Shown here: positions 3,223 through 64,000 of the stretch, piece after piece | Position numbering within the stretch: position 1 is the stretch's first letter | How the letters are laid out: each line of letters begins with the position of its first letter | Assembly (NCBI RefSeq): GCF_003790525.1 | Contig: NZ_CP033635.1 | Reading direction: 5' to 3' (one strand) | Length of the DNA: 64,000 nucleotides | Origin: Escherichia coli | GTDB taxonomy: Bacteria; Pseudomonadota; Gammaproteobacteria; Enterobacterales; Enterobacteriaceae | Made by a program: the position numbers and the translations under genes | The notes under the pieces: model-generated | What the model saw: the letters and a program-made list of their open reading frames with translations, nothing else | Told to the model about the DNA's origin: nothing | Databases searched by the model: none

Positions 3223-4380
3223 ATGGAGCGCAACGTCACGCTCGATTTTGTTCGCGGCGTCGCCATTCTGGGGATCCTGCTATTAAACATCAGCGCCTTT
3301 GGGCTACCAAAGGCGGCTTATCTCAATCCCGCCTGGTACGGCGCTATTACGTCGCAGGATGCATGGACCTGGGCATTTCTCGATCTCATCGGCCAGGTGA
3401 AATTCCTCACGCTTTTTGCTCTGCTGTTTGGTGCGGGCCTGCAAATGTTGCTGCCCCGTGGCAGACGCTGGATCCAGTCGCGGTTAACGCTGTTAGTCTT
3501 GCTGGGCTTTATTCACGGTTTATTGTTCTGGGACGGCGATATTCTGCTGGCTTACGGGCTGGTGGGCTTAATCTGCTGGCGGCTGGTGCGCGATGCGCCA
3601 TCGGTAAAAAGCCTGTTTAATACAGGCGTCATGCTTTATCTGGTGGGGCTTGGCGTTTTGCTGTTATTGGGGCTGATTTCCGACAGCCAGACCAGCCGCG
3701 CCTGGACGCCGGATGCATCGGCTATTTTGTATGAAAAATACTGGAAGCTTCACGGCGGCGTTGAAGCGATCAGTAATCGTGCCGATGGTGTTGGCAACAG
3801 TTTACTGGCACTGGGCGCACAGTATGGCTGGCAACTGGCAGGGATGATGCTCATTGGTGCCGCATTGATGCGCAGCGGCTGGCTGAAAGGGCAGTTCAGC
3901 TTACGTCACTATCGTCGTACTGGTTTTGTGCTGGTGGCGATTGGGGTGACCATTAACCTTCCTGCCATCGCCCTGCAATGGCAGCTGGACTGGGCGTATC
4001 GCTGGTGTGCATTCTTACTTCAAATGCCGCGGGAACTGAGTGCGCCGTTTCAGGCGATTGGCTATGCGTCGCTGTTTTATGGCTTCTGGCCGCAATTAAG
4101 CCGCTTTAAGCTGGTGCTGGCAATCGCCTGTGTCGGACGGATGGCACTGACCAACTATCTATTGCAAACGCTGATTTGTACCACGCTTTTTTACCACCTC
4201 GGTTTGTTTATGCTGTTTGACCGTCTGGAATTGCTGGCGTTTGTTATTCCGGTATGGCTGGCGAATATTCTCTTCTCTGTTATCTGGCTGCGTTACTTCC
4301 GCCAGGGGCCGGTGGAATGGCTCTGGCGTCAGTTAACTTTGCGTGCAGCTGGGCCGGCAAGATCTAAAACATCAAGATAA
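3223..4380 (+). CDS. yeiB: Inner membrane protein (DUF418 family)
   Basis: 385 aa multi-pass hydrophobic ORF; synteny. Confidence 0.8.
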   Translation: MERNVTLDFVRGVAILGILLLNISAFGLPKAAYLNPAWYGAITSQDAWTWAFLDLIGQVKFLTLFALLFGAGLQMLLPRGRRWIQSRLTLLVLLGFIHGLLFWDGDILLAYGLVGLICWRLVRDAPSVKSLFNTGVMLYLVGLGVLLLLGLISDSQTSRAWTPDASAILYEKYWKLHGGVEAISNRADGVGNSLLALGAQYGWQLAGMMLIGAALMRSGWLKGQFSLRHYRRTGFVLVAIGVTINLPAIALQWQLDWAYRWCAFLLQMPRELSAPFQAIGYASLFYGFWPQLSRFKLVLAIACVGRMALTNYLLQTLICTTLFYHLGLFMLFDRLELLAFVIPVWLANILFSVIWLRYFRQGPVEWLWRQLTLRAAGPARSKTSR

Positions 4381-39399: not shown

Positions 39400-39487
39400 T
39401 GGCGGTGAGGGGGGGATTCGAACCCCCGATACGTTGCCGTATACACACTTTCCAGGCGTGCTCCTTCAGCCACTCGGACACCTCACC
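39400..39487 (-). tRNA. serW: tRNA-Ser (anticodon GGA)
   Basis: Reverse complement reads GGTGAGGTGTCCGAGTGG...CCTGGAAAGTG...GGTTCGAATCCCCCCCTCACCGCCA; long variable arm. Confidence 0.9.
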
Positions 39488-54376: not shown

Positions 54377-54399
54377 AAAAAGCGCCTGCGGGCGCTTTT
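54377..54399 (+). terminator. serS terminator
   Basis: AAAAAGCGCCTGCGGGCGCTTTT. Confidence 0.65.
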
Positions 54400-54554
54400 G
54401 CATGGTACTTAACTATATGAAAATAAATGGATTTTATTTTCATGTGTCCAGATAATGTCCATCTTTGAAGAAAAAAGTCCACAATACTGACGTTGTGGGC
54501 TTTTCTTTTTCCTGATGGTGTCGTGCCGTCAGTGCAACGAACCAAAGGGAGGGG

Positions 54555-54782
54555 ATGTTGATGTTGTTTTCCCTTCGCACCAGCTTTAAAGCCACTCTTG
54601 TTAACGATGATGGTACGCCACGGATCACGGCCGAGGTGAGGAATGTGACACCTGATGATATCGGGAAGGTGGCGGAACTTGTCAGGGATGTTTTTGGTAC
54701 TCCTTCCGGTACCTGCCGTTCAGACTCTGCGGCCAGGGTTGACAGGCAGGATGTTAACGCCGGGTGGCTTACGCGCCTCTGA
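54555..54782 (+). CDS. Hypothetical small protein (75 aa), possible distant paralogue of the 71-aa array protein
   Basis: Strong SD AGGGAGGGG before ATG; convergent with hok-like copy 1; shares the M.LF..R...GTP pattern with the 57756 ORF. Confidence 0.4.
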   Translation: MLMLFSLRTSFKATLVNDDGTPRITAEVRNVTPDDIGKVAELVRDVFGTPSGTCRSDSAARVDRQDVNAGWLTRL

Positions 54783-54932
54783 ATGATGATGCCCTCACTG
54801 GTGAGGGTGACAAAAAAGCCCTCTCAATGGCGGGCAAATCTGGTTTTTTGTTTTGTCTCTACAGGGAAAGGGCGCCATATCGGCCCACCCCAACAACCGG
54901 ATAGCGGGGAATTTCTCCCCCGCTGCGGTTTC

Positions 54933-55073
54933 TTACGGTTTACACTGCAAGAACGCCGCAAAACGCGCTCCCCAGATATCAAAGCTGAATTCACATAACG
55001 AATCGTGGACCATCCAGATGACCAGGGTTATTGTCAGGCATAAAATGCCAACAATAATCGTTTTTTGCGGTAT
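54933..55073 (-). pseudogene. Hok/Gef-family toxin homologue, copy 1, start codon ATG->ATA
   Basis: Hand-translated ...LCLTITLVIWMVHDSLCEFSFDIWGARFAAFLQCKP; the position aligned to the ATG of copy 2 is ATA (TAT at 55071-55073 on the + strand); overlapping mok-like frame 54991..55173. Confidence 0.45.
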
Positions 55074-55314
55074 AGCGCTTGCTCCTTTTACAAAGAGGCG
55101 CTAACCTTCCACTTGTCACGGTAGGAAGGGTCAGGCCTCGGTTAAACACAGATGTTTTCCGGGGCCTTTCCACATCCGGCCTTCAGGTTTTCCCTCCGGC
55201 CATCAGCCGAAAGGCACCCGTTTCTTTTTGTTGCGGCAATATTTCAGGTGTCAGTTGGGGTGGGCTGTATCTTGTCTGATGCATAAAAAAATGCCCGCGC
55301 TTTGGCGGGCAAAA

Positions 55315-55496
55315 GACAAGACTTTTCGTTTGTATATCATGGATAATGGACACCCCTTCCTGTTGTCAGGTGGCAGGCACCCGTGGTTAATCTACTGTTT
55401 TTGTGCTTTTGTCTCAACCCTGAAGTTTTCATGGAAAATCAGGGTTGCTTCATATGTGCCAGGAAGGTGCGGCTATGATAACTGCCAAAAAAAGCC
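55315..55496 (-). ncRNA. Structured repeat element X1 (candidate sRNA, subtype a)
   Basis: ~170 bp bounded by hairpins; internal perfect stems (CAACCCTGA...TCAGGGTTG, CCTTCC...GGAAGG); no SD-led ORF. Confidence 0.3.
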
Positions 55497-55525
55497 CGCT
55501 TTCCGGCGGGCAAAACAGCAATGTG

Positions 55526-55683
55526 AGTTGTCTGTCATTGATACTGGACAGCCTTCCTGTTGTCAGGTGGAAGGTACCCGTGGTTAATCTACTGTCTTTG
55601 TGCTTTTGTCTCAACCCTGAAGTTTTCATGGAAAATCAGGGTTGCTTCATGTGAACCAGGAAGGTGAGGCGATGGTAACCGCC
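55526..55683 (-). ncRNA. Structured repeat element X2 (candidate sRNA, subtype b)
   Basis: Near-identical core to X1 with a different distal end (CAGCAATGTGAGTTGTCTGTCATTGATACTGG). Confidence 0.3.
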
Positions 55684-55930
55684 AAAAAAATGCCCGCTTT
55701 CCGGCGGGCAAAACAAGGAAGTACGGATCATGTATTATTGATTACGAGGCATTCCACCATGCCCACGTTTAATTTAGCTAGTTTTCATTTTATTCACAAT
55801 ATAGTTACTTATCATATTTATGAACAAAACTGTAATTTCATCTATAGGTATAAGTGATTTGCATTAACATGTTTCTTCTGTATTGCTGTTGGTTTTCCGA
55901 TGCTGATATTTATGATACATTCAGGGGCAA

Positions 55931-56135
55931 ATGAGGTTGTTCCACAGAAACGATGTTGAGATATTTCTGCTCCAGAAAGGACAAGCTAAAAAAATAAAGT
56001 GAAATTATGATATGTCAGGGATGTTCAGGCATGTCAGTGTCTTATTAATAAACTCGTTGCTGCTGTAATAACACCAAAAAAATCAAAGCATAATCTGCAT
56101 GTTGTTCCTGATGACCCAATAACCACAAAAGAATA
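55931..56135 (+). pseudogene. Degenerate copy of the small array protein gene (frameshift/early stop)
   Basis: Begins MRLFHRNDVEI... then stops after 23 aa; the downstream DNA still aligns with the intact copy through ...CTGATGACCC(A/C)ATAACCACAAAAGAATAA. Confidence 0.4.
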
Positions 56136-56164
56136 AAAAAATGCCCGCTTTCCGGCGGGCAAAA

Positions 56165-56333
56165 CAGCAATGTGAGTTGTCTGTCATTGATACTGGACAC
56201 CCTTCCTGTTGTCAGGTGGAAGGCACCCGTGGTTAATCTACTGTCTTTGTGCTTTTGGCTCAACCCTGAAGTTTTCATGGAAAATCAGGGCTGCTTTGTG
56301 TGCGCCAGGGAAGGCGCCTCGATGGCAGGCGCA
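56165..56333 (-). ncRNA. Structured repeat element X3 (subtype b)
   Basis: Copy of X2 between hairpins at 56134 and 56333. Confidence 0.3.
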
Positions 56334-56586
56334 AAAAAAATGCCCGTGCTTCGGCGGGCAAAATAAGGAAGTACAGGTTACATGTTATTGATAAAGTAGC
56401 ATTGCTCTGTCCGTCTTTAATCTAACGAGTTTTGAGTTTTTTCACAATATTGTTACCTGTCATGTTATAGATGAAACTGCAATTTCATCTATAGGTATAA
56501 ATGATTTGTATTAATGTGTGTCCACTGTTTGTCTGCTTTCTGGTTTTCAGTTGACTGTGTTTCTGATGAATTCAGGAGGTTGTCTT

Positions 56587-56685
56587 ATGAGGCTGTTCCA
56601 CAGAAACGATATTGAGATTGAACTGCATTTCTCCTCCGGTGAGGATAAGGTTAAATCATTGTTGATGAAAAAAACAAAGATTTAA
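56587..56685 (+). pseudogene. 3'-truncated copy of the small array protein gene
   Basis: MRLFHRNDIEIELHFSSGEDKVKSLLMKKTKI*; AGGAGG SD; identical to the intact copy for 23 codons, then diverges. Confidence 0.35.
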
Positions 56686-56937
56686 TTTATTGATATAAAG
56701 GATTTGTATCAGCGTATGTCCACGCAGTGACCACATTTTCGAGAGGTAGAGTAAGCCCGCAACATTGCGGGCTTTGTCTTATAGTCTGATCACTGTTTCA
56801 AGTCGGTGAGGACACCAAAAAGAAAACCCGCAGTTTTTATGCTGCGGGTTTGTTGTTCATGTCTGTGAGATAGGGTGCCTTATCGACCTTACCCTGGCAA
56901 CCGATTGACGGGGGATTGCTCCCCCGTCGCGGTTTCC

Positions 56938-57078
56938 TTACTTCTTACATTGTAAGAACGCCGCAAACTCCGCTCCCCAGAAGCTCATCCGTATTTCGCA
57001 CAGCGAACCGTGCAATATCCAGATGATGAGGATTGCCGTCACGCAGAACGTGATGGCCGTAAGCGATTTTTGCGACAT
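56938..57078 (-). CDS. Hok/Gef-family type I toxin homologue (46 aa), copy 2, intact
   Basis: Hand-translated MSQKSLTAITFCVTAILIIWILHGSLCEIRMSFWGAEFAAFLQCKK: TM helix plus SLCE(I/L)R and AAFLxC signature of Hok proteins; fully overlapped by a mok-like frame (56945..57178). Confidence 0.65.
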   Translation of the reverse strand: MSQKSLTAITFCVTAILIIWILHGSLCEIRMSFWGAEFAAFLQCKK

Positions 57079-57335
57079 AGCACTTGCTCCTTTTCCGGAG
57101 AGGCGCTAACCTTTCACTTGTCAAGGTAATGCGGTTAGGGCCTCGGTTAAACAGAAATGTTTTCCGGGGCCTTTCCACATCCGGCCTTCAGGTTTTCCCT
57201 CCGGCCATCAGCCGAAAGGCACCCGCGCGTAATTTAACTGTTTCTTTTTGTTGCGGCAATATTTCAGGTGTCAGTTGGGGTGGGCTGTATCTTGTCTGAT
57301 GCATAAAAAAATGCCCGCGCTTCGGCGGGCAAAAA

Positions 57336-57504
57336 ACAAGACTTTTCGTTTGTATATCATGGATAATGGACACCCTTCCTGTTGTCAGGGGGAGGTACCC
57401 GTAGCTAATCTACTCACTTTGTGCCCGCAGCTCAACCCTGAAGTTTTCATGGAAAATCAGGGCTGCTTTGTGTGCGCCAGGGAAGGCGCCTCGATGGCAG
57501 GCGC
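57336..57504 (-). ncRNA. Structured repeat element X4 (subtype a)
   Basis: Copy of X1 between hairpins at 57305 and 57505. Confidence 0.3.
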
Positions 57505-57755
57505 AAAAAAAATGCCCGCTCTCCGGCGGGCAAAACAATGATCTACGTCACATTATATTGATAACCGGGCATTCCTCCATGCCCATTTTTAATTTAGCCA
57601 TTTTTCATTTTGTTCACAATATAGTTATCTATCATATTCATGAATGAAATTATAATTTCATCTATAGGTATAAATGATTTGTGTTAATATGTTTCTCCTG
57701 TCTAACTGTTTTCTCATTTTTCGATACTAGTATTTCTGATATATTCAGGGGGCGT

Positions 57756-57971
57756 ATGAGATTGTTCCGAAGAAACGATATTGAGATTGAACTGCATTTC
57801 TCCTCCGGTGAGGATAAGGTTAAATCAATAAAGGTGAAACTAAGACATGCCCGGGATGTTCAGGCGTGTCAGTGTCTTATTGATGAACTCGTTGCTGCCG
57901 GAGGAACGCCAAAAAAACAAAAATATAATCTGCACGTGGTTCCTGATGACCCCATAACCACAAAAGAATAA
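57756..57971 (+). CDS. Small basic protein (71 aa), intact copy of the array family
   Basis: MRLFRRNDIEIELHFSSGEDKVKSIKVKLRHARDVQACQCLIDELVAAGGTPKKQKYNLHVVPDDPITTKE; GGGGG SD; AT-rich promoter-like region upstream; two degenerate paralogues nearby. Confidence 0.5.
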   Translation: MRLFRRNDIEIELHFSSGEDKVKSIKVKLRHARDVQACQCLIDELVAAGGTPKKQKYNLHVVPDDPITTKE

Positions 57972-58113
57972 AAAAATGCCCGCTTTCCGGCGGGCAAAAA
58001 ACAATTTAGGTCATATTTCATCATGGATAATTAAATACTTGCCCGTGGTTGCGGGAAAGTATCTGCCGTTAATCTACTTGCCTTATGATGTCCTCTCAAC
58101 CTGATTATTGTTC

Positions 58114-58365
58114 TTAAATATCAAGATTAATCTGAGTATTCCCCCTGTGAGATCCCGGAAAATCTTCCCACGGTATCCGCTCTGTACCCTGCGGCGACGG
58201 GGCGCGTTTTGATGTGAATTTGTTAAAACCCTCCAGTGTGGTAAAGCCGATCCCGCATTCGAGGTTATTGCACTGGTAGTACTTCAGGCGAACTGTGCCT
58301 GAATCATTTTCATTGCGACTGGTGCGGATACGTGCGGATGCACCGCATAGGGGACAACGGAACAT
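58114..58365 (-). CDS. ogr: Ogr/Delta-family zinc-finger late transcription activator
   Basis: MFRCPLCG...YYQCNNLECG: CxxC...CxxxxC spacing as in P2 Ogr. Confidence 0.8.
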   Translation of the reverse strand: MFRCPLCGASARIRTSRNENDSGTVRLKYYQCNNLECGIGFTTLEGFNKFTSKRAPSPQGTERIPWEDFPGSHRGNTQINLDI

Positions 58366-58408: not shown

Positions 58409-59500
58409 TTATCCGCCTGAATCTGCTATCCATTCGGGGATTTTCGCTTCCAGCTCCAGTTGTGTGGTGAAGCCGCTTTCATCTATGATGTGCTCCACCC
58501 TGGCAATAATCCAGTCCTGATTGTCCACCTCGCTTTTAAAACCTGTTACCCTGCCGTGCATTTCGGGATACAGGTCGGCACGACCCCGTGCCAGAGTGAT
58601 GGAGAATGCCGCTGCTCCCCGCTGTAACTCCTGCCACTTTGCCGCAGCTGCACGTCGTGCGGTTTCTTCATTCTGGTAAGTCCTGCGCAGAACGTAGACG
58701 TTCCCTTCCGCGCCTTCCATGTAATCACCCTCCCGGCTGCTGCTCTTCTCCTGTTTCTGTTTCCCGGCTTCCCTGCGTCGCTTCACGTTCACTTTTTTCT
58801 TGTGCCCGAACTTCAGATCGAGCCAGTGCGCCCGGACCCCCGTATACGCATCACGGTCAGCAATGCGAAAGCGGTGACTGTCGCCGCTGCTGCGGGTAAT
58901 GGCGAACGAAGGCAGGGCTCTTCCGTCCGGCCCGGTTCCGCCACCCGGCAGAATGAATAACAGGCTGCCGTTTTTTACGGTGGCAATCGCACCCAGCATT
59001 TCAGCCATGCGGGTCAGGAAGGATATATCGCTCTCTTCGGTCTGGTCAGCGTGGTCAATTTCGATATCCATGAGGATTTCGCTTATCTGTGTCTTCAGGC
59101 CGTAGCGGTGAGCGATGGCTGACACAACCTGTTTTACGGTCACGTCGTGCCAGGATACCTCCCGCCTCACGTTGAACTCTTCCCGAAAATCTGCGCTGCT
59201 GGCGGTGATGATCAGTTTATCTGGAGGTCCTTCCCACGCAACCTCATCAACGACGTAGGTGCCCTTGTTAACCAGTGATTCTCCTCGCCAGCCAATCATC
59301 ACTCTCAGGCGTGCGCCACGTGGTGGCAACTGTAACTGCCCGTCCGTATCGTCAAGGGTGAGGGTGACGCGGTCTGCCTCAAAGGCCCGGTTATCCGTCA
59401 GGGTCAGCGTCATGAGTCGCTCTGTGAGGTTTGCCAGTGTGTTGTTGTTGATGGTGATGTCGATATCCGGTGACGGAACGGTAACTGACAGCTCTTTCAT
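58409..59500 (-). CDS. P2 gpD-like tail protein (late control D)
   Basis: ...LTLTDNRAFEADRVTLTLDD...DISFLTRMAE...SGDSHRFRIADRDAYTGVRAHW... parallels P2 D; start at MKELSV with AGGAGAG SD. Confidence 0.8.
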   Translation of the reverse strand: MKELSVTVPSPDIDITINNNTLANLTERLMTLTLTDNRAFEADRVTLTLDDTDGQLQLPPRGARLRVMIGWRGESLVNKGTYVVDEVAWEGPPDKLIITASSADFREEFNVRREVSWHDVTVKQVVSAIAHRYGLKTQISEILMDIEIDHADQTEESDISFLTRMAEMLGAIATVKNGSLLFILPGGGTGPDGRALPSFAITRSSGDSHRFRIADRDAYTGVRAHWLDLKFGHKKKVNVKRRREAGKQKQEKSSSREGDYMEGAEGNVYVLRRTYQNEETARRAAAAKWQELQRGAAAFSITLARGRADLYPEMHGRVTGFKSEVDNQDWIIARVEHIIDESGFTTQLELEAKIPEWIADSGG

Positions 59501-59661
59501 GGTGTTCTCTCCTGGTGCGTTCTGTAATGGTTTCATGCACCGCAGCGGCGTTGAATGGCTGTTTTGTTGTCGCTGTCAGGAGACAACATCAAAGGGGTGA
59601 GATTACCGCGTGTGTGGGTAATGATTACGCAAAATCAACCAGCCAGACAAGGGTGAAACAT

Positions 59662-61876: not shown

Positions 61877-62026
61877 TAACCGTCGTGCCCTTTGAGCACA
61901 TTGAAGACTTTGTGGCGGATATCGCCGTTATTTTCAACTGGTCTCCCGCTGAAATCTTCCTGATGGATCCCGGCGAGGTGGTCGCCTGGCGTGAGCGGGC
62001 GGCCCTTCGCAGCGGGAACGCAGAGC

Positions 62027-64000
62027 ATGAAAACGCTTGATATACGGGTCGCCTTCAGCGCTGTTGACAGGCTGACCCGTCCCACCGAAAACGCCCGTCG
62101 CATGATGGGCCAGCTTGGCGACTCCATACAGAGAACGCAGGGTGCGATCAAAAACCTGGAACGCTACGCCCGTTCATTTGATCGCGCCCGCGAGGCTGCA
62201 AACAAGGCCGGAAACGGCATTGTCAGGGCGCAACGCCAGTTAAGCGCACTTCAGCAAATTCAGCGCGCCGGAACCGTGCTGTCTGACAAACAGAAAAAGC
62301 TGATGAACGATTTGAGCCTCAAACTTGAGCGTCTCAATGAGGTCCGTGCGCGTGAAGTTCAGCGAATGCGCGAACTGGGTGGTGAGCTGCGGCGCCACGG
62401 TATTGCGCTTTCCGGCAGTGACAACACCATTCAACAGGCCATACGGCGAACACAGCAATACAACGACCAGCTGGAACGCGAACGGCAGGCGCTGGCACGT
62501 GTCACGCAGGCACGCCAGCAATATTCCCGTGCTCAGGAGACGGCGGGAAAACTTAAAACGGTCGGACTTACGGCGGTTGGTACGGCGGCGGCAGGCGGCT
62601 ATGCGGCCGGACGTTTCCTGCAACCGGCGGTCAGTTTTGGTAAGGAGATGTCACGCGTCCAGGCGCTGACCCGTATTGACAAAAACAGTCCGCAGTTTAA
62701 GGCGCTGCGCGAACAGGCCATTAAGCTGGGCTCTGAAACGCAGTTTACCGCCGGTGATGCTGCCAGCGGTCAGGCGTTCCTTGCCATGGCCGGCTTCACA
62801 CCACAGGCCATACAGGCGGCGCTACCCGGCGTGCTTGATCTGGCAATGGCTGCAGGGATGGACCTGGGACAGACTGCCGATATCAGTTCGAATATCCTCA
62901 CACAGTTTGGTCTGTCCGCTGACCAGATGGATCGCGTGGGTGACACGCTGGCCGCCACCTTCACACGAACCAATACGGATCTCCGTTCACTGGGTGAAAC
63001 CATGAAGTACACGGGTCCGGTTGCAGCTTCACTTGGCCTGTCCCTTGAACAGGCGGCAGCCATGACGGGTGTCCTTGGCAGTGTGGGGATCCGTGGAAGT
63101 GATGCAGGTACGGCGCTGCGTGCCAGTCTGTCACGTCTGGTTGATCCGCCGAAGGCCGCTGCAATGGCACTGAAAGAGCTTGGCGTGGAGACGCAGAATG
63201 CTTACGGGAACATGCGCCGGATGGAAAATATCCTGAATGAGCTGTACCAGGCCACCCGAAAATACGGTAATGCCGCGCAGGTCTCCTTTTTCAGGGCTAT
63301 TGCCGGGCAGGAGTCCTATGTTTCCCTGATGAATCTTGTCACTGCGGCGGGGGAAAATAATCTTCCCCGTCTTACGCAGGAGATTGAACTGGCCACCGGG
63401 GAACTTAATCACACTGCCCGTGTTATGGCTGATAACCTGGACGGTGACCTGAAATCACTGAACAGCGCATGGGAAGGACTGCGTATCCGTGTCGCTGACC
63501 TCGTTGACGGGCCGCTGCGTTCTGTCACGCAGTCGTTCACCCGGGTTATTGCGAAAGTCACCGCGCTGGCTCAGGCGCACCCTGAACTGACAAAACAACT
63601 GCTGATTGCCGGTGGTGTACTGCTGGCTGCGGTTGCGGCCATGGGGGCGCTGTCACTTGCCACTGGTGTGTTGATGGGGCCGCTGGCAAAACTGCGTCTT
63701 GGGTTTGCCCTGCTGACCGGCACATCCGGCCTCGGTCGTGCGCTGCCGTTACTGACGCAGCTGCGCGGCGTACTCGGTGGTCCGCTGGGCGGTATCGGTG
63801 GCTGGCGCGTGCTGTTTGTCGGTATCACCTCCGGTGCCGGACGGTTTGCTGCACTGCTGGGCGTAGTTGCGGGGCGGCTTCGTGGTGTGCAGGCGGGACT
63901 TGGCGCGCTGCGTGGTGGTCTGCTGGCTGCGTTCACTTCACCTGGCGGCGCACTGATTTCACTGGGGCGCGGTATCGGAATACTGGCGCTCAGACTGTCA
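62027..64000 (+). CDS. Tail tape-measure protein (P2 T-like); 3' end lies outside the window
   Basis: Hand-translated frame open from ATG 62027 to the window end (MKTLDIRVAFSAVDRL...); coiled-coil N-terminus and Gly/Ala-rich hydrophobic segments; absent from the ORF track because no stop lies in the window. Confidence 0.7.
   Translation, partial: MKTLDIRVAFSAVDRLTRPTENARRMMGQLGDSIQRTQGAIKNLERYARSFDRAREAANKAGNGIVRAQRQLSALQQIQRAGTVLSDKQKKLMNDLSLKLERLNEVRAREVQRMRELGGELRRHGIALSGSDNTIQQAIRRTQQYNDQLERERQALARVTQARQQYSRAQETAGKLKTVGLTAVGTAAAGGYAAGRFLQPAVSFGKEMSRVQALTRIDKNSPQFKALREQAIKLGSETQFTAGDAASGQAFLAMAGFTPQAIQAALPGVLDLAMAAGMDLGQTADISSNILTQFGLSADQMDRVGDTLAATFTRTNTDLRSLGETMKYTGPVAASLGLSLEQAAAMTGVLGSVGIRGSDAGTALRASLSRLVDPPKAAAMALKELGVETQNAYGNMRRMENILNELYQATRKYGNAAQVSFFRAIAGQESYVSLMNLVTAAGENNLPRLTQEIELATGELNHTARVMADNLDGDLKSLNSAWEGLRIRVADLVDGPLRSVTQSFTRVIAKVTALAQAHPELTKQLLIAGGVLLAAVAAMGALSLATGVLMGPLAKLRLGFALLTGTSGLGRALPLLTQLRGVLGGPLGGIGGWRVLFVGITSGAGRFAALLGVVAGRLRGVQAGLGALRGGLLAAFTSPGGALISLGRGIGILALRLS

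Follow-up and report, generated by a model that had tools for sequence, protein, structure and literature searches.

A 64,000-nucleotide stretch of Escherichia coli DNA (NCBI RefSeq assembly GCF_003790525.1, contig NZ_CP033635.1; the whole stretch is here called the window) carries, between positions 55285 and 57999, eight near-identical copies of a short hairpin, set between the late-activator gene ogr and the attachment (att) site of a P2-like prophage. What do these hairpins do, and how did one prophage come to hold so many of them? A preliminary description of the window had taken them for intrinsic terminators and had attributed their near-identity to recent duplication or gene conversion, or to a mobile terminator-bearing unit. 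Terminators and duplication both stood up in our analysis, but that description had overlooked the putative promoter-bearing unit that belongs to each hairpin and the cassette breakpoints that lie at hairpin edges. With these taken into account, we consider it probable that the hairpins are the shared terminators of tandem sibling small-RNA-like genes, carried as cargo of the prophage between ogr and the att site.

The repeated hairpin has the anatomy of a minus-strand terminator

A pattern search with AAAAAAATGCCCGCNNTCCGGCGGGCAAAA, allowing up to 3 mismatches, returned exactly eight matches of 30 nt each, all on the plus strand and starting at positions 55285, 55486, 55684, 56135, 56334, 57305, 57506, and 57970 (here numbered T1 to T8). 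The same search found no match in 100 dinucleotide-preserving shuffles, which confirms the eight near-identical copies. Their consensus form is A7-GCCCGC..GCGGGC-A4. The copies at 55684, 56135, and 57970 are identical, the copy at 57506 differs from these in the loop only, and the unit that we call A1 is found with three different loops on otherwise identical sequence. The earlier statement that only the loop or a bulge varies thus holds for most copies but not for two of them: the copy at 55486 begins CAAAAAAAG and has lost the T of the outer U-A pair, and the copy at 56334 (T5) carries a stem change to GCCCGT that leaves the minus strand with a stem of 6 pairs. We also found a ninth copy, in degenerate form (AAAAAAGCCCTCTCAATGGCGGGCAAA, here T0), at about 54811-54838, outside the range described before.

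When the hairpins were scored as intrinsic terminators, all eight qualified, and only when read from the minus strand, in agreement with the preliminary description. On the minus strand they have stems of 6 to 7 bp with 5 to 6 G-C pairs, loops of 6 to 8 nt, and at least 7 T, and their energies lie between -13.9 and -10.4 kcal/mol; 7 U come after each. The plus strand has AAAA after the hairpin in place of the U run of an intrinsic terminator. The last hairpin ends at 57999, and a gap of 114 bp separates it from the ogr stop codon (58114-58116), close to the ~115 bp first reported.

The gaps between hairpins measure 168 to 941 bp, and the sequences that fill them are homologous to one another rather than unique short spacers, which rules out a CRISPR array. 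An integron cassette array is ruled out as well, since the 30-nt repeat lacks GTTRRRY and RYYYAAC core sites.

Each hairpin lies at a conserved distance from a promoter pattern

In four independent loci, 20 of 20 hairpins have a promoter pattern 85 to 104 nt upstream on the minus strand. The pattern, TTG(A/T)G(A/C)-17-TA(G/A)ATT, is a consensus match only; its spacer is always 17 nt, its register is conserved on the minus strand alone, and a generic promoter scan independently reported three of these promoters. In the window, promoter pattern and hairpin together delimit eight predicted RNAs of 79 to 98 nt, which fall into an A type, a B type, and an ogr-proximal type (prox).

55285-55417, minus strand: candidate RNA gene A1 (T1, 55285-55314; body, 55315-55382; promoter TTGAGA-17-TAGATT, 55389-55417; predicted RNA of ~98 nt)
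55486-55614, minus strand: candidate RNA gene A2 (T2, 55486-55515; promoter TTGAGA-17-TAGATT, 55586-55614; predicted RNA of ~94 nt)
55684-55799, minus strand: candidate RNA gene B1 (T3, 55684-55713; promoter TTGTGA-17-TAAATT, 55771-55799; predicted RNA of ~81 nt)
56135-56263, minus strand: candidate RNA gene A3 (T4, 56135-56164; promoter TTGAGC-17-TAGATT, 56235-56263; predicted RNA of ~94 nt)
56334-56447, minus strand: candidate RNA gene B2, with a divergent 5' domain and the weaker, 6-bp stem of T5 (T5, 56334-56363; promoter TTGTGA-17-TAGATT, 56419-56447; predicted RNA of ~79 nt)
57305-57435, minus strand: candidate RNA gene A4, a chimera whose 3' half is A1-like (T6, 57305-57334; promoter TTGAGC-17-TAGATT, 57407-57435; predicted RNA of ~96 nt)
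57506-57619, minus strand: candidate RNA gene B3 (T7, 57506-57535; promoter TTGTGA-17-TAAATT, 57591-57619; predicted RNA of ~79 nt)
57970-58099, minus strand: candidate ogr-proximal RNA gene prox, with a promoter that begins 14 nt after the ogr stop and a fold z-score of -3.3 (T8, 57970-57999; promoter TTGAGA-17-TAGATT, 58071-58099; predicted RNA of ~95 nt)

Conservation among 11 distinct units is concentrated in the ends of this arrangement. The promoter hexamers are invariant at 9 of 12 positions versus 2 of 17 for the spacer (Fisher p = 0.0013), and the terminator block at 21 of 30 versus 9 of 81 for the body (p = 3e-9); between the two stem arms, every variable position lies in the loop. 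Across unit types the hairpin is 92% identical, versus 49-61% for the flanking 30-mers. An alignment of the 11 units gives one architecture common to the A, B, and ogr-proximal types: the -35 element is followed by the 17-nt spacer, a -10 element to which AA is added, a stem-loop at the 5' end, and a middle region with an ATC.AT core, and the unit closes with TTTTGCCCGCC-loop-GGGC-A-T7. On the minus strand every unit folds into a 5' stem-loop, an open center, and the terminator, and the UUUU-hairpin-A-U7 3' end is invariant across all units. Hfq-dependent RNAs canonically bind Hfq through a 3' module of this kind, with UUUU ahead of the hairpin and a U7 tail behind it.

According to the reading that we favor, the minus-strand UUUU-hairpin-AUUUUUUU would be the Rho-independent terminator of a short, independently transcribed noncoding RNA gene, and probably also the Hfq-type 3' module of each RNA. 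The eight genes would be paralogs of the three types, each with a sigma-70-type promoter, a stem-loop at the 5' end, a middle that is single-stranded and bears a UAUC(A/C)AU(G/A)A-like motif, and the shared terminator. Transcription of the units, their binding by Hfq, and regulation in trans are what we infer from the sequence. Open reading frames (ORFs) are not conserved in frame from unit to unit; the candidates extend through the terminator, and the one in B3 consists of a start codon directly followed by a stop.

We assign the units to the minus strand because of the polarity of the U tract, the promoter register, the shared orientation with ogr and hok, and a substitution in the T2 stem of strain CM2 that gives a G-U pair on the minus strand but an unpaired A-C on the plus strand. 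Folding energy is uninformative as to strand, the two strands being alike in this respect.

The prophage integrase gene has, in its sense strand (locus L002, 36654-36666), a 13-mer that is found in the middle of the A2 and A3 RNAs, GTCCAGTATCAAT; 0 occurrences were expected in shuffles. Its orientation there gives identity, not complementarity.

The hairpin is confined to one prophage lineage

A genome-wide search for the hairpin had been proposed as a check, with a common REP-type element as the outcome that would overturn a locus-specific interpretation. We ran it with a 37-nt query in sensitive blastn mode against 5,426 complete E. coli genomes. The hairpin matched exactly 30 of them (0.55%), the same 30 that hold the array, and is thus restricted to this lineage of prophages. 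Searches with the A and B units led to the same 30 genomes, always on the chromosome, and a sensitive search added none. In E. coli strain 135, whose array region is 100% identical to the window, there are eight hairpin places, all within the array. This rarity and the array-only placement rule out a dispersed palindrome of the REP/BIME kind. They do not bear out the mobile terminator-bearing unit either, since no copies lie outside the array to support an autonomous element.

Beyond E. coli genomes, a relaxed hairpin pattern found isolated single copies only, mostly at one Rahnella site, and no arrays among 100,044 species-representative genomes. Metagenomes yielded isolated single hairpins plus five contigs with the same array, and three viral contigs carry the hairpin, two of which we examined and found to be the same phage type. 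Deposited phages contain no match to the A or B units, nor to the neighboring gene ORF71 by tblastn; the hok cassette alone is shared with them. In the literature searched, no paper gives the hairpin sequence or joins P2-like, prophage, sRNA, and ogr. A metagenome contig (L130, ~892-1050) has a B3 RNA body whose promoter is swapped for unrelated AT-rich DNA directly upstream of the -10 position, which suggests a rearrangement or insertion there.

The gene order of the window, lolA-rarA-serS, then an insert, then phage genes, places the array at the edge of an integrated element. In strain 135 the insert is a complete P2-like prophage that runs from just after serS to an integrase adjoining dmsA; in K-12, serS is directly followed by dmsA, and there is no repeated hairpin. 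A 15-bp sequence, CCTGCGGGCGCTTTT, is found once in K-12 between serS and dmsA and at both lysogen junctions (attL and int-dmsA), and is therefore the att core. The prophage contains the entire array (54400-58113), between attL and ogr, in ~3.7 kb that is almost unannotated.

54385-54399, no strand: attL core CCTGCGGGCGCTTTT, 15 bp, part of the serS terminator, at the left end of the integrated prophage
58114-58365, minus strand: ogr/Delta-like zinc-finger late activator, with which the core phage genes begin on the right side of the array (ORF list, RefSeq)

In P2 the attP/attB core is the terminator of the host small-RNA gene cyaR. The window resembles P2 in having a terminator hairpin with a U run just downstream of ogr and in the nature of its true att core, the serS terminator. 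It differs in that its att core and its repeated hairpin are distinct sequences: neither the empty site in K-12 nor the int-dmsA junction has the hairpin, which also rules it out as a scar of tandem integration.

The same prophage lineage occupies four att sites, with eight hairpins at serS, six at zapB, four at copA, and four at ihfA. The order of the four-hairpin core is T-A-T-A-T-B-T-proximal unit-ogr, and the att-side cargo varies by lineage, being an orphan ORF of 73 to 75 amino acids in some and hicAB in the ihfA-site prophage. The nearest deposited phages, Xuanwuvirus P88 and P884B11, are 77-78% identical over a quarter of the late region. In P88-like relatives (Ogr ~70% identical), ogr is directly followed by a hok/sok cassette, and there is no hairpin array. 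When loci were scanned with a covariance model of the units, 77 from these related phages yielded no member, and neither did six that encode distant ORF71 homologs.

Ancestral paralogs, recent duplication, and breakpoints at hairpin edges

Four paralogs (A1-type, A2-type, B, and ogr-proximal) are ancestral to all lineages. Because their bodies have diverged to ~50-60% identity while their hairpins remain 92% identical, the likeness of the hairpins is not merely recent; selection, conversion, or both would have kept it, and not recency alone. Recent events are nonetheless evident. A2 and A3 are 95% identical, A3 being a recent copy of A2. Adding a tandem duplication of [T-A-T-5' half of B] to the six-hairpin form gives the array of the window, with a hok cassette at the duplication junction, and the stretches hok1-T1-A1 and hok2-T6-A4 of its two hok/sok copies are 99% identical over 136 nt. 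The proposal of recent duplication or gene conversion thus accounts for these stretches and for the rise from four or six hairpins to eight, but is insufficient for the four ancestral paralogs. We suggest that the four became eight through tandem duplication and two hok cassette insertions.

54811-54838, minus strand: T0, degenerate hairpin, the ancestral first hairpin, at the 3' end of hok copy 1 (from its sequence and homology to CM2)
54860-55284, minus strand: hok/sok copy 1 (hok1), a pseudogene, unannotated in RefSeq (Rfam sok match of 48.1 bits; comparison with copy 2)
56659-57302, minus strand: hok/sok copy 2 (hok2), intact and inserted, P88-like (Hok ORF, 56938-57078; promoter TTGCCG-17-TAAATT; own terminator, 56824-56851)

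Homology to the CM2 array stops at 54838 and restarts at 55281; hok1 is flanked by T0 and T1, two copies of one ancestral hairpin. Four of the five mapped breakpoints lie at hairpin edges: 54838 and 55281 (hok1), 57303 (hok2), and position 3596 of locus L007, where hicAB and the 73-amino-acid ORF have been swapped as cargo. The fifth, 56658, lies within the truncated ORF71 copy of B2 and not at a hairpin. Between the serS-site and copA-site arrays, identity is a sharp mosaic of 100% blocks beside blocks of 64-80%.

These breakpoints are evidence for a different view, in which the hairpin is primarily a recombination site bounding cargo cassettes, like a linker or an attC site, and terminates transcription only secondarily. 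The placement of hok1 between copies of one hairpin, the three loops of A1, and the sharp-edged mosaic would all fit it, as would the stop codons of two plus-strand genes, ORF71 (57756-57971) and hicB (locus L118, 4604-5002), whose TAA is fused to the hairpin A tract. However, 30 bp of identity is enough for RecA-dependent recombination, so unequal crossing-over or conversion at hairpins is an economical explanation that needs no dedicated recombinase. The sole recombinase annotated in the element is a P2-type phage integrase at its far end, with a different core sequence, and the hairpin has no integron-type GTTRRRY core. The 56658 breakpoint is away from any hairpin, and termination accounts for the strict U7 polarity, which recombination does not. 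We regard this view as distinctly unlikely. A stronger form of it, to which we give slightly less credence again, would make the hairpin the dedicated junction element of a phage-borne cassette system with hok/sok, hicAB, ORF71, orphan ORFs, and RNA genes as cargo; capture, duplication, and exchange would then occur at the hairpin by hairpin-directed template switching or by a recombinase, and the slot between ogr and att would be a miniature integron without an integron integrase. If the hairpins are the terminators of sibling RNA genes, as we favor, they would still serve as crossover points when units and cargo cassettes are duplicated, deleted, or swapped, and as the preferred ones, because the hairpin is the longest identical stretch between units.

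ORF71 and the B units

One protein gene remains intact among the RNA units, and a palindrome lies between it and the B3 promoter.

57644-57661, no strand: perfect 18-bp palindrome ATGAAATTATAATTTCAT, candidate operator, between the B3 RNA promoter and ORF71 (read from sequence)
57756-57971, plus strand: ORF71, 71 amino acids, near-orphan, its stop codon joined to the A tract of T8 (RefSeq WP_001236182.1; match to phrog_14142, function unknown, E = 5e-12)

ORF71 is hydrophilic and has no match in Pfam, NCBIfam, or PADLOC and none to a toxin family. Its relatives form five clusters, all from E. coli, and a search of 1.84 billion representative proteins gave eight hits; distant homologs occur at the edges of P2-like prophages and in P4-like elements, where there is no related array. 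The homolog to the right of B1 (55800-56134, plus strand) is degenerate, and the copy adjoining B2 is truncated at ~56685. A related palindrome, split as TAGATGAAA-6 nt-TTTCATCTA, is found at B2, and that of B1 has degenerated. The palindrome ATGAAATTATAATTTCAT is a possible operator.

An RNA gene divergent from a small ORF is also the arrangement of tisB/istR-1, zorO/orzO, and shoB/ohsC, and this likeness raises the idea that a B unit is part of a type I toxin-antitoxin-like pair, in which B RNA represses the divergent ORF71, the hairpin does no more than terminate this antitoxin RNA, and the A and prox units are duplicated antitoxin genes. The perfect palindrome between the two promoters and the toxin-antitoxin systems among the neighboring cargo (hok/sok and hicAB) would suit such a pair. 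Yet B RNA shows no significant complementarity to the leader and start region of ORF71 (all |z| < 2), ORF71 has the hydrophilic character and lack of toxin relatives just described, and the A and prox units have no partner ORF. We consider this idea highly improbable.

Proposed descent of the units from hok, and what weighs against functional RNA genes

RefSeq annotates a Hok/Gef family protein at 56938-57078, in copy 2, although NCBIfam Hok hits there are weak and below cut-off. Copy 2 is homologous to the P88-like phage hok cassette, with phage matches of 90-95% identity. Copy 1 has a start codon changed from ATG to ATA and a 15-nt deletion (AGTTAAATTACGCGC) that takes out the -10 element. 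The leaders of both match Rfam sok (RF01794) on the minus strand, at 55062-55219 with 48.1 bits and at 57065-57224 with 46.2 bits; both scores are below the gathering score of 59, and both matches are therefore missed by default Rfam annotation.

The A-type promoter and first ~35 nt match the hok promoter and leader at 31 to 33 of 58 nonhexamer positions in a fixed ungapped register (z about 5, p < 2e-4), and in both the -10 element lies the same 5 nt from CGGGTGCCT. B1 and prox are only marginally similar to hok, and B2 is not similar. In the P88-like relatives, the hok promoter sits where the prox promoter sits here, after ogr. We infer that the A type, perhaps the whole family, descends from the hok mRNA promoter and 5' leader; fusion of this promoter-leader to a new terminator would have produced the founder.

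The units nevertheless differ from hok/sok loci. A-type units share with hok the promoter, the -10-to-start register, and a 5' CGGGUGCCU "tac-like" leader, two true cassettes lie within the array, and related phages hold hok after ogr. Unlike hok/sok, however, the A, B, and prox units lack the mok/hok frame, the Sok target region, and the 3' fold-back element, and they end ~60-75 nt after the leader in a different terminator. With no conserved ORF and homology to the hok promoter and leader only, the units themselves are ruled out as hok/sok loci. The A-type RNAs would keep the hok "tac" sequence GGGUGCCUU, and because this is complementary to the hok 3' fold-back element (56873), they could act in trans on the folding of hok mRNA.

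The same ancestry would also fit an account in which the units are nonfunctional relics, that is, hok insertions from which the toxin gene was deleted, leaving promoter-leader-terminator scars whose terminators merely insulate hok and the late operon. Signs of decay are plain in copy 1, the ORF71 copies of B1 and B2 are degenerate, and T1 and T6 stand directly upstream of hok promoters, placed to block read-through. A search for targets by duplex energy and seed matching is likewise in its favor: over ~96 kb of local sequence, comprising the ORF71 leaders, hok mRNA, the ogr leader, 54 kb of host DNA, and the rest of the prophage, no unit had a target above shuffled controls, the expected exception being the match of the A-type 5' end to the hok2 3' fold-back element at 56873. 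Relics, however, would be expected to lose their hexamers, spacing, and terminator, and all units have kept the hexamers, the exact 17-nt spacing, and the terminator despite ~50% identity of body and spacer across three types. Moreover, the four-unit core is kept in prophages without hok in the array, and the B and prox units are hok-like only marginally. We therefore hold the relic account to be unlikely.

Several observations, the failed target search among them, weigh against tandem small-RNA genes. Distinct unit sequences number only ~16, and the 100% blocks between lineages can reflect recent recombination rather than purifying selection. Rfam 15 has no family that matches the units at gathering or permissive thresholds; AgvB, RyhB, and rseX score 18 to 26 bits on them, via the terminator alone. 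The folding energies of the units are unremarkable (z of -0.5 to -3.3), the plus strand folds about equally well, and the stem change in T5 favors the plus strand, where it gives G-U against A-C on the minus strand. Decay is evident in parts of the array, as the ORF71 copies beside two of the three B units have decayed. Finally, ORF71 and hicB end on the plus strand exactly at a hairpin that lacks a plus-strand U tract.

Relation to known RNA genes and phage cargo

Sibling small-RNA genes are known from OmrA/OmrB in E. coli, Qrr1-5 in Vibrio, and LhrC1-5 in Listeria. The array is similar to these in its clustered paralogs of ~80-100 nt, each with its own predicted promoter and intrinsic terminator, and in a scaffold whose ends are conserved while internal regions have diverged. 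It is unlike them in being phage cargo present in 0.55% of E. coli genomes, in its 4 to 8 members per array with a near-identical 30-nt terminator block, and in that no common seed or target was found. The array is probably a set of phage-borne small-RNA morons, a kind of element that is already known. Like the morons and prophage small RNAs DicF, IpeX, and AgvB/AsxR of Stx phages, its members would be self-contained transcription units, with promoter and factor-independent terminator, between core genes near the prophage end, with expression from the lysogen likely; they resemble no Rfam family, and a multicopy array with one shared terminator is unusual. The tandem type I toxin-antitoxin repeats of E. 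coli, ldr/rdl (LDR) and ibs/sib (SIB/QUAD), are a further parallel, being tandem units of a few hundred base pairs, each with a small-RNA gene that has its own promoter and terminator, and with a strain-variable copy number. In contrast to these, the array has no conserved small hydrophobic ORF opposite or beside its RNA genes and is phage-borne, not part of the chromosomal core.

If transcribed, the units would be an undescribed family of 4 to 8 sibling small RNAs on a temperate phage, would join the few known cases of prophages that deliver regulatory RNAs to their host, and would offer a concrete example of small-RNA genes born from a toxin mRNA promoter and leader. If silent, they would be ordinary duplicated terminators in a decaying cargo region. 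The series of four, six, and eight hairpins at four integration sites makes a compact natural system for terminator-driven duplication, deletion, and cargo swapping.

Other features of the prophage and the window

Between attL and the array lies one further small ORF, which had no significant match in Pfam, NCBIfam, or PADLOC.

54555-54782, plus strand: 75-amino-acid orphan cargo ORF on the att side (ORF list; a 73-amino-acid ortholog is annotated in strain CM2)

At the left end of the prophage, the serS hairpin is kept in the lysogen, followed by four T versus seven (54385-54399; L003, 1750-1770; L002, 37378-37395); the shortened T run might weaken serS termination. To the right of the array, gene D and ogr are divergent from the sheath and tube genes (58409-59536, minus strand, versus 59515 onward, plus strand), as in P88-like Xuanwuvirus. 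In P2 proper, the FI-FII-E-T-U-D-ogr genes are colinear. The tail tape-measure gene is in incomplete pieces in the annotated twin genome (window ~61934-64000; L002, 7639-9450, 9616-9834, and 10557-10940), and because of this split the prophage may be defective. A tRNA with a long variable arm (39403-39487, minus strand), whose anticodon loop reads as that of a tRNA-Ser (anticodon GGA), gave the sole Rfam match above the gathering score in the whole window.

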